From contig JBKHIT010000034.1 in NCBI GenBank assembly GCA_046538485.1, forward strand, positions 1 through 51,115: 51,115 nt of DNA, read 5' to 3'. The stretch comes from Candidatus Brocadiia bacterium. Lineage in GTDB: Bacteria; Planctomycetota; Brocadiia; SM23-32. Position numbers and translations under genes: made by a program. The notes under the pieces were generated by a model. The model was given only the letters and a program-made list of their open reading frames with translations, was not told the origin of the DNA and searched no databases. This document shows, piece by piece, positions 1,066 to 43,217 of this stretch (position 1 is the stretch's first letter; each line of letters starts with the position of its first letter).

Positions 1066-1938
1066 TTGTCTGATCTTCCTCAGGACAGCGATACCCCGGC
1101 GTTGTCGCAGCTGCGGATACCGTTCGGGCTCAATGAAGAAGGGGCTTGTGTGCGTCCGGCGGACGCTGAGCGGTCAGGCTGTTATTTCTGCCCCGAATGC
1201 GGGGAAGCGCTCATTCTGCGGCGCGGTGAGATTAGAGTTTCTCATTTTGCCCATTACGGCGACCCAAATTGCCGTCTGGCAGGGGAACGCTGGATGCATG
1301 TGGCGGCGAAATATGTCCTCAAGGATGCCATTAGGCGAGCGAGCGAGGGTGCTGGCCCTCAAGTGCGGCTCCTCCGGCGGTGCCCGATCTGCAAATCTCG
1401 AAAAATGCAGAACGTGCCGGCGCGTATTTCCGAAGTGGAAATTGAATACAAACTTAAAAACGGGCGGGTGGCAGACCTGGCGCTGTTCGATTCAGAGCAA
1501 AGGTTGGCGTGCGTGGTCGAAATCCGCCGTTCCCACGAAGTCGACACGCGGAAACAGACTGATTTAGAGGGTCTTCCCTGGGTGGAACTGGCGGCGGGCG
1601 AGGTTCTGAAGAACCCCCAGCTGTGGTTTCCGTTGAAAACCAACGGGCTTCGGAAATTTCGCTGTCTCTGTGAGGGTGCCACACGTATGCGGACGGTCCG
1701 GCGGACCTTCGGGTTGCACGTCCCCCAATGTCCACTGGCGGTCGGCTTGCCCCCGGGCCAGTCGCATCGCAATACCGTCTCCGACTGTCGGTCGTGTCCG
1801 TTTATGAGAAAGATATGCGAGATCGCCGGCGAATCCGCGCGGGAAGTCATCGTCCTCTGCGAAGGGATTACCAGCCGGGGCGCCAGCCGAGCAGCAGAAA
1901 TCGGCCCCTCTGGCATGTCCTCCAGGGCGAATCGCTGA
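1066..1938 (+). CDS. Competence protein CoiA-like PD-(D/E)XK nuclease with Zn-ribbon
   Basis: YFCPECGEALILRRGEIRVSHFAH, GERWMHVAAK, EYKL..RVADLAL..VVEIRRSH; GGGAGG RBS before TTG start. Confidence 0.7.
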   Translation: MSDLPQDSDTPALSQLRIPFGLNEEGACVRPADAERSGCYFCPECGEALILRRGEIRVSHFAHYGDPNCRLAGERWMHVAAKYVLKDAIRRASEGAGPQVRLLRRCPICKSRKMQNVPARISEVEIEYKLKNGRVADLALFDSEQRLACVVEIRRSHEVDTRKQTDLEGLPWVELAAGEVLKNPQLWFPLKTNGLRKFRCLCEGATRMRTVRRTFGLHVPQCPLAVGLPPGQSHRNTVSDCRSCPFMRKICEIAGESAREVIVLCEGITSRGASRAAEIGPSGMSSRANR

Positions 1939-1978
1939 GTTGGAGTCTGCCCGTGGTGTCTACTCATGGTTGGTCGTT

Positions 1979-2006
1979 TTCTCCGCCTCAAGTCCAGTTA
2001 CGCCCG
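1979..2006 (-). repeat. Partial module B repeat
   Basis: Minus strand reads CGGGCGTAACTGGACTTGAGGCGGAGAA, matching the 3' half of module B. Confidence 0.65.
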
Positions 2007-2049
2007 ACTCGATTGAGCCGCGCCTCGACCGCAACAAAAAGAGGACACG

Positions 2050-2280
2050 TCAGAATTCCGCGAACTTCCGGGTCCAGCTTTGCATAGGTACTTCGGCTGG
2101 GTGCATCTCGCTGTTTTTGTAATGGCCTCGGTGCTCCTGTCGCGATATCCAGCGGGCCGAGCCGTCGAAGAACGCGCCATTAACTCCTTCGAGGTCATGC
2201 GACCAGCCCTGGTCATATTTGTTGGAGTAGGGTCCGTTATTGGCAAAGGGGGAATACCACGGGGGGCCATCTCGGCCCAC
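2050..2280 (-). pseudogene. C-terminal fragment of a prepilin-type / H-X9-DG (DUF1559-like) protein
   Basis: WSHDLEGVNGAFFDGSARW resembles the H...N.xF.DG motif; no prepilin N-terminus upstream. Confidence 0.55.
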
Positions 2281-2328
2281 AGAGGGTGGAGAAGTTGAGG
2301 CTAATCGTAGGCATTTCGGAACGATACA

Positions 2329-2375
2329 GCGGTGAGTAAAACGTCCCGTCGGTCCGTTTTAACACACCGCACTCC
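2329..2375 (+). repeat. REP-like hairpin, copy 2 (IS110 insertion site)
   Basis: GCGGTG-AG-TAAAACG...CGTTTTA-ACA-CACCGC then ACTCC; similarity to copy 1 stops after CC 2374-2375. Confidence 0.8.
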
Positions 2376-2387
2376 TACAGTTATGCT
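2359..2387 (+). promoter_or_regulatory. Hybrid sigma70-like promoter across the target/IS junction
   Basis: TTAACA (2359-2364, in the REP), 17 bp, TATGCT (2382-2387, in the IS left end). Confidence 0.5.
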
Positions 2388-2393
2388 GTTGTG

Positions 2394-2635
2394 TAAATGA
2401 CAAATGTACCCTATGCATTAGGGGATGCGCGGGGGGCTGCGCAGCTCCCCGCGCGCGATGGATCCGGAGCGCCGGTAGGGCCTCCGCACTCTGCTGCGGT
2501 TAAGACAGCTACTTTGGTCAGCACCCCCGGCCTCCGATCCCTCGCAGAGTGTCCTTCAGAAGAAGCCCATCCGCCTTAAAACAGCGGATAGGGCCGATGT
2601 AGGAGAACTTGCTTGCGAGGCGGTAGATCCACCGT
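2394..2635 (+). ncRNA. Putative IS110 bridge RNA (seekRNA)
   Basis: 5' hairpins (2409-2423, 2427-2454) then two arms with large internal loops (2465-2536, 2540-2620) closed by TGGATC/GATCCA. Loop segments CCGCACTC (2484-2491), CTTTGG (2512-2517) and TGTAGG (2598-2603) match the target and donor junction sequences. Ends approximate. Confidence 0.75.
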
Positions 2636-2680
2636 TTGCTCTCTGCGCCCTTTTTCCTCCTGAATACAGGAGAATGACCA

Positions 2681-2760
2681 ATGTTAGAGGTCGGTATCGA
2701 TTGGGGACAGAAAAGCCCTAATGCATTCGCGATTCTCGCCGAAAATGGGAAACCTTGTCA
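2681..2760 (+). pseudogene. IS110 recombinase (DEDD RuvC-like) N-terminal fragment
   Basis: VGIDW motif with first catalytic Asp; the ORF (to 2887) runs into unrelated sequence after about 25 aa. Confidence 0.7.
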
Positions 2761-2854
2761 AAAAGGGATCCGTGCAGCGCCCCGCAGATACAGGCGGACA
2801 AAGACAGCCGCAAATGCAGCCGCTCGAATCCAGATCCGTATTTTCAGACAGAGC

Positions 2855-4189
2855 CTAAACGCCTCCGTCCTGGAGTTGTTGAGGTAGTCGATTGGGAAGC
2901 CCGATTACGTCTTCACATATATGGCCTGCCTTTTCAAAAGTGACGGGCAGGTTGGGCGATATGAAGACGTAGAATTTCCAGAGTGCACGATGTTGGTCCT
3001 GGAGGAGTTGTATTTCTGCGCTGTTAAGGTCGGAAAAACGTTCCGTTTTCCCGGGGGCCGAAACGACAGGCACATTGGCTTCCTTTAACGCCATTTCTTG
3101 CGGTGCGCAGTAGATGCCAACCTGATATTTGGAACCTCCCAGACGCTCTGCGATCTGTTGTTCGGCCTGGCCTCGTGCGTCTGCTTCGTTCAGATGGTAC
3201 TTGGCCACAAGTTCTTTCAGCTCCTCTGCATCTATCTTATCGCTCAGCATGTAGCAGCGTTTGAAGAGATCTCGTGCCTGGAATGCTTCAAGCAAATTGC
3301 GCAAACCGGGATCGCGTCCATAACGATCGAGCAGATAAAAAATCATCCCCTCATCTGTAAGACTGTAGAGTTCTGACTCATCCATACCATTGGCAAAAGC
3401 TCGTTCAATCGCCTTGGAGATCATAACTCCGCAGGCGATTTTCGCATGATGGTAGTAAACCCGTTCGCTGAGCACGTAGCGGATCCGCAGCAGGTTGGTA
3501 ACTTCGCTGAGTGCATCGTACCGGAAAATGCCCTGATGGTGAAGCTTAAGCATTAACCGGCCGTCCTGGATGGTGAAATAGTGAAAGACGCGCTGATCAT
3601 ATTGACGCGAGAGCCCGCAGAAATAATTATCTCGTTTGAGATAATCGAGCAGATCGGCGCAGATTGTGCCGCTGACGATATCTTGAAGCCACTGCTGGTC
3701 AGGCGGCAGCTCCCCGGATGGGTCGAGGATTCTAAGGGCTCGTCGCCCGGCTTCCGTGGTAGCCAATCGATGGCCCAATTCACTTTTCAAAAGAAAGTGG
3801 TCGAAACGTTTCGCACTCTTATCGTGCCGGCTTAGAATTTTGCGCTCATCTTCAAACGTATGCCCGAAGGGAATATGGGTTACGTCGTGAACGAGTCCAG
3901 CAAGAGCCGCCGTCTTTTTGAGGGTTTGCGCGATAGGCTCTGCCAGCTGTTTTTCAATATGCCCGAGAAGTTGTTTAGCCATCCAGCAGGCGCCGATGGA
4001 ATGCTCGAAGCGGGTATGTTGTGCAGAGGGGTAGACGAGAAAAGCGGCTCCGAGCTGATGGATGCCGCGAAGCCGCTGCATGGTTGGAGTGTCGACAATC
4101 TCGATCTCCTGCGCCGTCAGGTGGATGTCTTTATGGACGGCGTCTCGGAGTTTTTTGCCTTTTTGGCTGGGTGACTCCTTTTCGGGCAT
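2855..4189 (-). CDS. HD-domain phosphohydrolase (dNTP triphosphohydrolase/YwfO/SAMHD1-like)
   Basis: RDAVH, QRLRGIHQLG, HTRFEHSIG, LVHDVTHIPFGHTFE, ADLLDYLKRD, VYYHH. Confidence 0.85.
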   Translation of the reverse strand: MPEKESPSQKGKKLRDAVHKDIHLTAQEIEIVDTPTMQRLRGIHQLGAAFLVYPSAQHTRFEHSIGACWMAKQLLGHIEKQLAEPIAQTLKKTAALAGLVHDVTHIPFGHTFEDERKILSRHDKSAKRFDHFLLKSELGHRLATTEAGRRALRILDPSGELPPDQQWLQDIVSGTICADLLDYLKRDNYFCGLSRQYDQRVFHYFTIQDGRLMLKLHHQGIFRYDALSEVTNLLRIRYVLSERVYYHHAKIACGVMISKAIERAFANGMDESELYSLTDEGMIFYLLDRYGRDPGLRNLLEAFQARDLFKRCYMLSDKIDAEELKELVAKYHLNEADARGQAEQQIAERLGGSKYQVGIYCAPQEMALKEANVPVVSAPGKTERFSDLNSAEIQLLQDQHRALWKFYVFISPNLPVTFEKAGHICEDVIGLPNRLPQQLQDGGV

Positions 4190-36592: not shown

Positions 36593-37278
36593 ACGTGACG
36601 TATCGAAGATATGGGAGTCCCGAAAGGCCGGTGTAGAGAGACAGATATTGAACGCAACACGGAAAACAAACGCGCAAATGTATTCGTTTCCGAAATTTCT
36701 GCGCCACCCCTTCGGGGTTTGGAAATTGTGTGGCGTTCCCGAGTCCTGGGGCTTGCCCGAACAACGGGCGCGCCCCAGGCTATGTCTGCGATCGACCCTT
36801 TTAAGGGGCTCAAATCAACATCAGCAAGCCCACGAAGTGCCCGATGCAAAGTTAGCCTGCTGTGTAGTGAACCGCGGGAAACGAAGCCCGCGAAGTGCGC
36901 GATGCAAGGTTAGCCCGGCGTTTGGTGGACCGTGTGGAACGCAGCCCACGAAGTGGGCGGTGCAGGGTTAGCCCGGTGCGCAGTCGCGCCGGTTTCGGCG
37001 CGCAAGCTCCGGGGAAGAAGGATGTCACAACATAAAAGCCCCCGAAGGGGGCGACGCAGAGCTAAGCGGTGTTGAATAACTAACCTGAGGATAGAGAATA
37101 GCCGTACGATGTTTTCTATTGCGGCCTGAAAGGCTAATTTATGTTAGGCTCTGTCTGGCTTGGGCTGAAGTGGTCTGAAAGACCATGGAGACCTGGGTTA
37201 CGGAGAAGCGCATCATATTGCGGGCTGAAGGCCTGCCTCGATTTGCTGTTTTTGGAAAACGGGTTTGATTATCAAACC
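36593..37278 (+). repeat. Composite REP/BIME-like element, copy 1 (internal 58-bp triplication and nested REP)
   Basis: 36647-37102 closely matches 42840-43185; arms TCTGCGCCACCCCTTCGGGGTTT and AAAGCCCCCGAAGGGGGCGACGCAGA. Confidence 0.85.
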
Positions 37279-42786: not shown

Positions 42787-43217
42787 ACGTACCCATCGCA
42801 AATACGAGAATCGCAAAAGGTCGATGCTGAAAAACACACATTAAACGCGACACGGAAACAAACGCGCGAACGTATTCGTCTCCGAAACTTCTGCGCTACC
42901 CCTTCGGGGTTTGGAAATTATGTGGCGTTCCCGAGTTCTGGGGCTTGCCCGAACAACGGGCGCGCCCCAGGCTATGTCTGCGATCGTCCGTTTTTCAGGG
43001 ACTCAAATCAACATAAGCAAGCCCACGAAGTGGGCGGTGCAGAGATAGCCCGGTGCGCGTCGCGCCGTCTTCTGGCGCGCAAGCTCCGGGGCAGATCGGT
43101 GCCCACAATATAAAAGCCCCCAAAGGGGGCGACGCAGAGTTAAGCGAAGCGGTGTCGAATAAGTAACCTGAGGATTGAGAATAGCTTTTCTTGGGCAACG
43201 GGTTTGGTCATCAAACC
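42787..43217 (+). repeat. Composite REP/BIME-like element, copy 2
   Basis: Matches 36593-37278 without the triplication and the nested REP. Confidence 0.85.

Follow-up and report, generated by a model that had tools for sequence, protein, structure and literature searches.

The window analysed here is a 51,115-nucleotide stretch of DNA from a Candidatus Brocadiia bacterium (contig JBKHIT010000034.1 of assembly GCA_046538485.1). Near its beginning, on the forward strand, lies the remnant of an IS110-family insertion sequence (2376-2788). The remnant sits beside a REP-type repeat, and the two together present a promoter-like pair of hexamers, TTAACA from the repeat and TATGCT from the element, separated by 17 bases. 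The preferred reading, with a probability of about 50%, is that the remnant is debris carrying a fortuitous promoter match that has no consequence in this genome.

A REP-targeting element of the IS110 family would have integrated after the CC of CCGCACTCC, on the 3' side of a hairpin of the type called REP-A here. A later rearrangement at a 75-nt repeat would have removed the right end and most of the recombinase gene. In the excised circle of the intact element, the right end would contribute the -35 hexamer TTGACA and the left end the -10 hexamer. The remnant, still integrated, would carry a weakened version of this junction promoter (TTAACA-17-TATGCT), in which TTAACA stands in register by accident because its bases belong to the conserved arm and tail of the REP-A hairpin. 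A low level of initiation at this site would yield a structurally intact but orphan bridge RNA. The match would be inconsequential because no cognate recombinase is assembled, the right end is missing, and a stronger promoter-like site on the opposite strand opposes it.

The anatomy and boundaries of the remnant, the register of its hexamers, the guide matches and the promoter type of the host are established directly. Whether RNA polymerase starts near 2394-2395, at a low rate, on the promoter predicted from the sequence is an evenly balanced question.

Anatomy and Boundaries of the Remnant

The remnant consists of a left end, a predicted bridge RNA gene and the first ~36 codons of a recombinase gene. 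Its leader is 305 nt long and runs from 2376 to the ATG at 2681. The recombinase stub (2681-2788) begins MLEVGIDWGQKS, contains an extra base near 2750, and loses homology at 2788. Positions 2367-2788 are 95.5% identical over 423 nt to a copy on contig C71, where the matching stretch leads straight into an IS110 DEDD transposase domain (PF01548, E 2.3e-15). A tblastn search with the relative P0002 matches only residues 1-29 in the window. An earlier description of this copy as recombinase-less is borne out by that short match and by the end of homology at 2788.

The place of the rest of the element is taken by a high-copy repeat of 75 nt (2784-2858), which overlaps the truncated recombinase gene by only ~2-4 nt. 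The repeat has 19 BLAST matches including itself, and the best 15 of the 19 are spread over 13 other contigs, with identities of 74-97%. In run X1 the repeat has a depth of ~617, compared with ~25-30 for the unique flanks.

The extra base near 2750 shifts the reading frame and is missing from every public contig that covers the position. It may be a real difference of the window copy or an assembly error. The former is possible because the covering public contigs may represent the C71 copy.

The ends of the element can be placed by comparing filled sites with empty ones. Five left junctions are known (the window, contigs C71, C26 and C20, and the metagenome contig L016). Each has CCGCACTCC directly before TACAG, and the sequence after CCGCACTCC reads TACAGTTAT at all five. 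In empty sites, CCGCACTCC is followed by ACAG, ATAG, AGAG or GAAA. On the other side, the right ends on C71 and C20 are identical up to ...TTGACATAAGAAGCACCGAAA and diverge beyond it, and three right-end copies terminate ...GAAGCACC. Together with the five left junctions at CCGCACTCC, this amounts to sequence-specific insertion without terminal inverted repeats.

Empty sites also reproduce the right flanks. An empty site on the minus strand of C71, CCGCACTCC+GAAATTGAAAACAACGACAGCC, is the exact flank of the C71 right end, and empty sites on contigs C18 and C21, CCGCACTCC+GAAAGCGCT(C/T)CGCGCAGG, are the exact flank of the C20 right end. Because filled and empty sites agree, the element is taken to extend from TACAG... 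to ...AAGAAGCA, to share a core with its target, and to start at 2376. The inferred core is CC.

Several other placements were considered and rejected. A CT or TC core is ruled out by the empty paralogous sites, which fix CC, and a right end at ...CACCGAAA is ruled out by the boundary that empty sites set. TACAGT was discarded as a -10 hexamer, given the CC core and the same boundary.

A chimeric join of repeats during assembly, either at 2375/2376 or at 2788, would produce a similar picture and is extremely unlikely. Such a join would find favourable ground here, for both joints lie between multi-copy sequences. Among the public contigs of four DNA runs listed for 1900-3400, none bridges 2355-2373 or 2788/2789, so this assembly is the sole source for both joints, and the public contigs over 2750 lack the window's extra base. 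Yet the sequence common to REP-A and the other left flanks is just 9-11 nt long, far under the word sizes of assemblers, and the motif at the left joint is identical to that at four other junctions. Run X1 moreover reproduces the unique sequence on both sides (1900-2355 and 2831-3400) without differences.

Family Membership and Other Copies

Judged by its sequence, the element adds a new, decayed member to the IS110 family of insertion sequences. The DEDD/RuvC-like N-terminal domain of the family (PF01548) is present in P0002 and in the C71 copy. P0002 (406 aa) matches PF01548 with an E-value of 4.7e-28 and 98 bits, and shares 96% identity with the C71 copy across 113 aa. Its score against PF02371 (Transposase_20) is 18.4 bits, below the cut-off of 21.3; a precomputed PF02371 match exists for 19 of the 23 listed relatives. 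These 23 relatives are 45-100% identical and known as proteins only. The long noncoding left end of 305 nt contains two guide loops in its predicted fold, and by inspection the guides match target and donor around a 2-nt core.

An intact copy of the window element was not found in the assembly by tblastn with P0002, and the sole whole relative there is a paralogue on contig C102 with 45% identity. With 143 contigs and a completeness of 88%, the assembly may have missed an intact copy. Near-identical copies, full-length or nearly so, occur in public data (P0002 and L016).

Searches for a full-length copy that includes the right end gave no confirmed case among genome contigs, where 0 of 174 candidate stretches found with P0002 were confirmed. 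An alignment of 22 proteins retrieved 40 loci from genome contigs; 39 are at 25-34% identity, and the other, L048, reaches 66% over only 44 residues. In metagenome contigs the single locus found was L016, which covers residues 1-325 only. It has the same left end and the gene to residue 325, then continues into unrelated low-GC sequence and has no right end. At the DNA level, a search of 41 genomes, including the organism's own, gave matches in its own genome and an 84-nt match in genome G011. A protein search of 132 genomes of the class gave matches in seven, and all those outside its own genome are at 25-26% identity.

In the C71 copy, residues ~118-384 are missing between two WRN motifs, and both ends are present. 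This derivative measures 937 bp from the start of the left end to the tip of the right end (~11916-10980 on the minus strand, locus L002/L024), has a deletion of ~267 codons, and retains both ends together with the bridge RNA gene. Possibly it is a non-autonomous mini-element that could be moved by recombinase supplied in trans. Fragments of the element also occur elsewhere in the assembly: C26 and C20 each carry the first ~80 nt of the left end, C13 has 122 nt from the interior, and right-end pieces are found on C20 and C54.

The C102 paralogue (40900-39160 on the minus strand) is an intact gene of 406 aa with 45% identity, accompanied by a homologous RNA scaffold. The shared motif GTTTGACATAAG lies near its right terminus, and the AGGACG in its loop matches its own right end. 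Its other guides remained unmatched to its flanks, and its left boundary was not placed.

An orphan piece of a related kind occurs in G011, a member of another genus of the same family (locus L009, contig C3, ~1420-1600). There a hairpin is followed by GCACTCC and a left-end-like start. The piece has a look-alike of the target-binding loop (CCGCACUCA ... CCUUGG) and has neither a donor loop nor a recombinase gene.

REP Repeats as Targets

The REP-A copy that was the target occupies 2317-2375. Its hairpin is formed by TAAAACG (2337-2343) and CGTTTTA (2355-2361), followed by the tail ACACA and then CCGCACTCC. The left half of the target with the core lies at 2367-2375 (CCGCACT + CC, with the core at 2374-2375). 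A second REP-A copy is found in the window at 223-281, and the 5.19-Mb assembly of 143 contigs has ~27 BLAST matches to REP-A.

Among the 24 REP-A copies with the hairpin tail, 22 are typical empty sites, one has an atypical right flank, and one, that of the window, is filled. A repeat with a different hairpin, REP-B, has 17 copies, 15 of which are empty sites. All 24 REP-A and 17 REP-B copies have the tail CCGCA(C/A)TCC in common, and as short imperfect palindromes in many copies they are REP-type repeats.

Empty REP-A sites read CCGCA(C/A)TCC and then ACAG, AGAG, ATAG or ACCG. Empty REP-B sites mostly read CCGCACTCC and then ACAG, AGAG, ATAG, GTAG or AAAG. Counted over the genome, the right-flank variants after CCGCACTCC are ACAG (19), ATAG (17), AGAG (15), GAAA (5) and AAAG (2). 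Every target observed here has a hairpin directly 5' of CCGCACTCC.

The repeats are modular. At least four hairpin types (REP-A, REP-B, the type on C18/C21 and the type on the minus strand of C71) share the tail CCGCACTCC, with A.AG or GAAA after it. Genome-wide, sites with an exact CCGCACTCC tail number more than 60, and examples in the window are found at 223-484 and 2287-2380. A longer repeat unit of ~266 nt contains REP-A. Elsewhere in the window, arrays of GC-hairpin repeats (families D1-D4, D7 and D8) lie at 36664-37102 and 42856-43185, ~6.2 kb apart.

The Predicted Bridge RNA

The leader from 2394 to 2680 has a minimum free energy of -123.5 kcal/mol, compared with -102.1 +/- 5.3 for shuffled sequences (z -4.0; 0 of 200 as stable). 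A consensus fold of three copies and the C102 leader consists of a long stem capped by an apical hairpin, plus one further hairpin, with 50 pairs and 3 compensatory changes; support from covariation is thin, because only four sequences from two lineages contribute to it. Searching the whole window against Rfam at the gathering score gave no match, and Rfam 15 may contain no bridge RNA model.

Near its 5' end, the predicted RNA has a GC-rich stem-loop (2427-2454). One contig variant in run X3 is missing 26 nt of this hairpin (2427-2452), so the stem-loop may be dispensable, or it may be a small palindromic insert. The left ends on C26 and C20 are broken exactly at the same hairpin. Rearrangements with other GC-rich palindromes seem to concentrate there.

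Two internal loops follow. The predicted target-binding loop (2460-2540) has the left guide CCGCACUCU (2484-2492), an apical hairpin (2493-2509) and the right guide CUUUGG (2512-2517), and its stem is retained in the C102 paralogue. The predicted donor-binding loop (2541-2620) has the left guide AGAAGAAGC(CC) (2558-2568), an apical hairpin (2565-2594) and the right guide UGUAGG (2598-2603), which is followed by AG.

Guides were matched by inspection, using the rule taken from the IS621 report (PMC11208160) that 5' guides resemble the top strand and 3' guides pair, with the core included. The left target guide CCGCACUCU agrees with CCGCACTCC at 8 of 9 positions, and the last would be a U-G wobble. 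The right target guide CUUUGG would pair with CC+A(A/G)AG. For the donor, the left guide AAGAAGC (2560-2566, 7 nt) is the same as the right-end tip (TAAGAAGCACC), and the right guide UGUAGG (6 nt including the core) is complementary to CC+TACA of the left end. The AG after UGUAGG fits the target CT, as expected of a handshake guide.

No stretch varies more among the copies than the right target guide. It reads CUUUGG in the window, CUUCGG in C71, UUUUGG in L016 and CUAUGG in C13, so that all four differ, and the same positions vary in public contigs. These variants match the right-flank variants of the repeats (AGAG/AAAG, GAAA and ATAG). The C71 guide fits its own flank, CC+GAAA, at 5 of 6 positions. 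The guides of the window fit 15-17 genomic sites, namely CCGCACTCC+AGAG (15) and CCGCACTCC+AAAG (2). The way the guide variants track the right-flank variants is good evidence for a bridge RNA, as predicted, aimed at these REP-type repeats. The variation among copies looks like natural retargeting of a bridge RNA across repeat variants.

A Predicted Split Promoter at the Circle Junction

In IS621, the -35 hexamer lies in the right end and the -10 hexamer in the left end, so that they meet at the circle junction (Durrant et al. 2024, PMC11208160). The element described here has the same arrangement. The C71 and C20 right ends terminate TTGACATAAGAAGCACC, and TTGACA lies 11 nt before the tip, a distance made up of 9 nt and the CC core. 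The left end contributes 6 nt and then TATCCT. When the two ends of the C71 copy were joined by script, the spacer between TTGACA and TATCCT was 17. The circle junction would thus read TTGACA-17-TATCCT, given the position of the right-end TTGACA 11 nt before the tip. TTGACA is kept on C20 and has become TTGACC on C54. Close to its right terminus the C102 paralogue has GTTTGACATAAGGACGCC, and the remainder of its right end cannot be aligned. As predicted from these ends, a split promoter of the IS621 type would be reconstituted at the circle junction.

The Promoter-Like Site in the Integrated Remnant

Direct reading of the window gives TTAACA at 2359-2364, a 17-base spacer at 2365-2381 and TATGCT at 2382-2387. 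TTAACA is a 5/6 match to TTGACA and consists of the last three bases of the REP-A 3' arm plus ACA. It occupies the exact register of the right-end TTGACA. TATGCT is unique to the window; the three other genomic left-end copies and the metagenome copy have TATCCT, and each form matches the -10 consensus at 4 of 6 positions.

Much of this had been proposed in the first-pass annotation. The exact 17-bp spacing between the two hexamers was confirmed both by the sequence and by a consensus scan, and the origin of TTAACA in the host hairpin holds for the bases just described. TATGCT lies 6 nt inside the left end, as had been stated, now that comparison of filled and empty sites has set the boundary at 2376. 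Its role as the -10 half of the junction promoter agrees with the right-end TTGACA of other copies, which gives the same 17-nt spacer.

In the scan of 1500-3500, TTAACA-17-TATGCT is the sole promoter-like site on the plus strand. The REP-A -35 and the left-end -10 are near-consensus hexamers within the expected 16-18 nt of each other, with 9 of 12 positions matching. Counting both strands of these 2 kb, there are 2 promoter-like sites, compared with 1.2 +/- 1.2 in shuffled sequences, so the bare motif occurs at chance level. The consensus G of the TTG is absent from TTAACA, and the -10 has no TG extension.

The register is less common than the motif. Among 50,096 hexamers in the genome that resemble a -10, 413 (0.8%) have a match of at least 5/6 to TTGACA at exactly 17 nt, and 918 (1.8%) have one 16-18 nt away. 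The look-alike is present at one of the five known left junctions, or one of four flank types, which is that of the window; it is not conserved across insertions. At the same position REP-B has CGCGGT, L016 has CGCGCT and C20 has GCTTCT, which match the consensus at 0-1 of 6 positions. At 0.8-1.8% per site, the chance of finding such a hexamer over four or five flanks is ~3-9%, and there may be some non-random cause behind the register of TTAACA. It is nevertheless most likely that the promoter mimicry is fortuitous. TTAACA is found in 24 of 24 REP-A copies, whether filled or empty, so nothing suggests that it was selected.

A bolder idea is that the target repeat encodes a working substitute for the -35 hexamer, and that the variant of the REP repeat sets expression of the bridge RNA, and of the recombinase where one is present, with an insertion in REP-A "on" without excision and one in REP-B "off". 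This is decidedly unlikely. If it were true, the choice of REP variant would be a switch, and a target-encoded answer to the chicken-and-egg problem of excision. It would also explain why the sole surviving insertion in REP-A is one that is unable to excise, and an expressed orphan guide would be left that could direct or titrate the recombinase of other copies.

Host Promoters and the Activity of the Site

The host employs promoters of the TTGACA/TATAAT type. For 3,390 long open reading frames, the 200 nt upstream contain 127 sense motifs with both hexamers matching at 5/6 or better and 16-18 nt apart, 30 in antisense and 1 inside genes. For the class to which the site in the window belongs (at least 5/6 and at least 4/6), the counts are 263 sense, 102 antisense and 16 inside open reading frames. 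Thus ~60% of the window-class motifs upstream of genes exceed the antisense control (263 vs 102). Among 15 sequencing runs listed, no RNA run contains the locus.

The excess over the antisense control is one reason to ask whether the hybrid promoter is active enough to matter. Insertions in REP-A would then be expressed without being excised, and the orphan RNA would programme or titrate a recombinase. The register, the same as that of the element's own TTGACA, is consistent with such activity. The predicted RNA loops look intact, with guides that fit 15-17 genomic sites; bridge RNA can work in trans in IS621 (PMC11208160); and near-identical recombinase genes are present in public data. But no intact cognate recombinase is assembled, and the one whole relative is only 45% identical. 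The hexamer occurs at just one of five left junctions, its fixation within REP-A carries no sign of selection, and a promoter-like site with 10 of 12 matches lies downstream in antisense. On balance, an active and consequential hybrid promoter is improbable.

The first-pass annotation had gone further and proposed an orphan guide acting with, or titrating, the recombinase of intact copies. That proposal did not hold up, since the assembly contains no intact copy and only the 45%-identical C102 paralogue. A trans-acting or titrating orphan guide is unsupported in this assembly and very unlikely.

Antisense and Upstream Transcription

The opposing site is TTGACA-18-GAGAAT on the minus strand (2732-2761), within the first codons of the recombinase gene, and it matches the consensus at 10 of 12 positions. 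The site is also kept, with a 17-nt spacer, in C71 and L016, and thus in three of three copies. About 140 nt past it there is a terminator-like hairpin on the minus strand (2592-2566), with a T-rich tail to 2556. Together the two could produce a predicted antisense RNA of ~170 nt.

Upstream of the remnant lies a CoiA-like gene (1066-1938, plus strand). Between the gene and the remnant, a terminator-like hairpin with a T-run is found at 2201-2214, and its stem has only 5 pairs.

The hybrid site may also be silent altogether. Any RNA over 2390-2680 would then be read-through from the CoiA-like gene, or there would be none. A precedent is integrated IS621, which is transcribed weakly by read-through (PMC13626964). 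Silence would also agree with a -35 that has no conserved G and with a bare motif at chance level. On the other hand, the hairpin at 2201-2214 intervenes, though with a stem of just 5 pairs, and the -10 is a genuine half of a promoter, correctly spaced from a 5/6 hexamer, and the host uses promoters of this consensus. Complete silence is accordingly rated unlikely.

Comparison with Known Systems

The element resembles IS621 in its recombinase with an N-terminal DEDD domain, its long noncoding left end and its RNA with two guide loops (PMC11208160). Further points of likeness to IS621 are the 2-nt core, the REP-type target, and a promoter split between a right-end -35 and a left-end -10. Unlike in IS621, the core here is CC, as inferred from filled and empty sites, and the target flank adds a look-alike of the -35. 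The relationship in sequence is distant, and actinobacterial and other relatives found are at 25-30% identity. The host also differs from that of IS621, being an uncultured bacterium from mat and salt-lake metagenomes.

Hybrid promoters at insertion sequences take one hexamer from the element and the other from neighbouring DNA. In the classical case, a host gene is driven from an outward-facing -35 at the end of the element. The arrangement in the window is the reverse of this, in that the -35 would come from the host repeat and drive RNA of the element itself.

Once integrated, IS621 is without its junction promoter and depends on weak read-through, and a terminator placed upstream abolishes excision (Hiraizumi et al. 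2026, PMC13626964). The same question arises here, namely how a bridge RNA can come from an integrated copy that lacks the junction promoter. In IS621 the source is upstream genes, whereas the candidate here is a -35 borne by the target together with the element's -10.

ISPpu9 and ISPpu10 of Pseudomonas putida offer another comparison. According to PMC12288879, ISPpu9 has an internal promoter of its own and ISPpu10 a junction promoter; both have antisense sRNAs, Asr9 and Asr10, and orphan copies exist of ssr9, an associated sRNA gene. A stem-loop in the target promotes insertion of ISPpu10, as outlined in a preprint (bioRxiv 10.64898/2026.03.19.712850). Insertion of an IS110-group element beside a REP stem-loop is common to those elements and to the one described here. 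The candidate antisense RNA recalls Asr9 and Asr10 (PMC12288879). Unlike ISPpu9 and ISPpu10, the element in the window is a remnant, and a target-supplied -35 is not described for them in the excerpts of these sources. More generally, no description of a target-supplied -35 for an integrated IS110 element was found among the papers that the literature searches listed.

Biological Meaning

As it appears from the sequence, the promoter idea is at present a coincidence at one decayed copy. How an integrated copy of an IS110-family element obtains RNA and enzyme for its first excision has been addressed only recently, with read-through in IS621. Were the promoter idea true, integrated copies would have a second route, through a -35 taken from the target repeat, and the activity of the element would depend on its choice of repeat variant. 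Independent of the promoter idea, the variation of the guide loop that tracks the repeat variants is natural evidence of bridge RNA retargeting.
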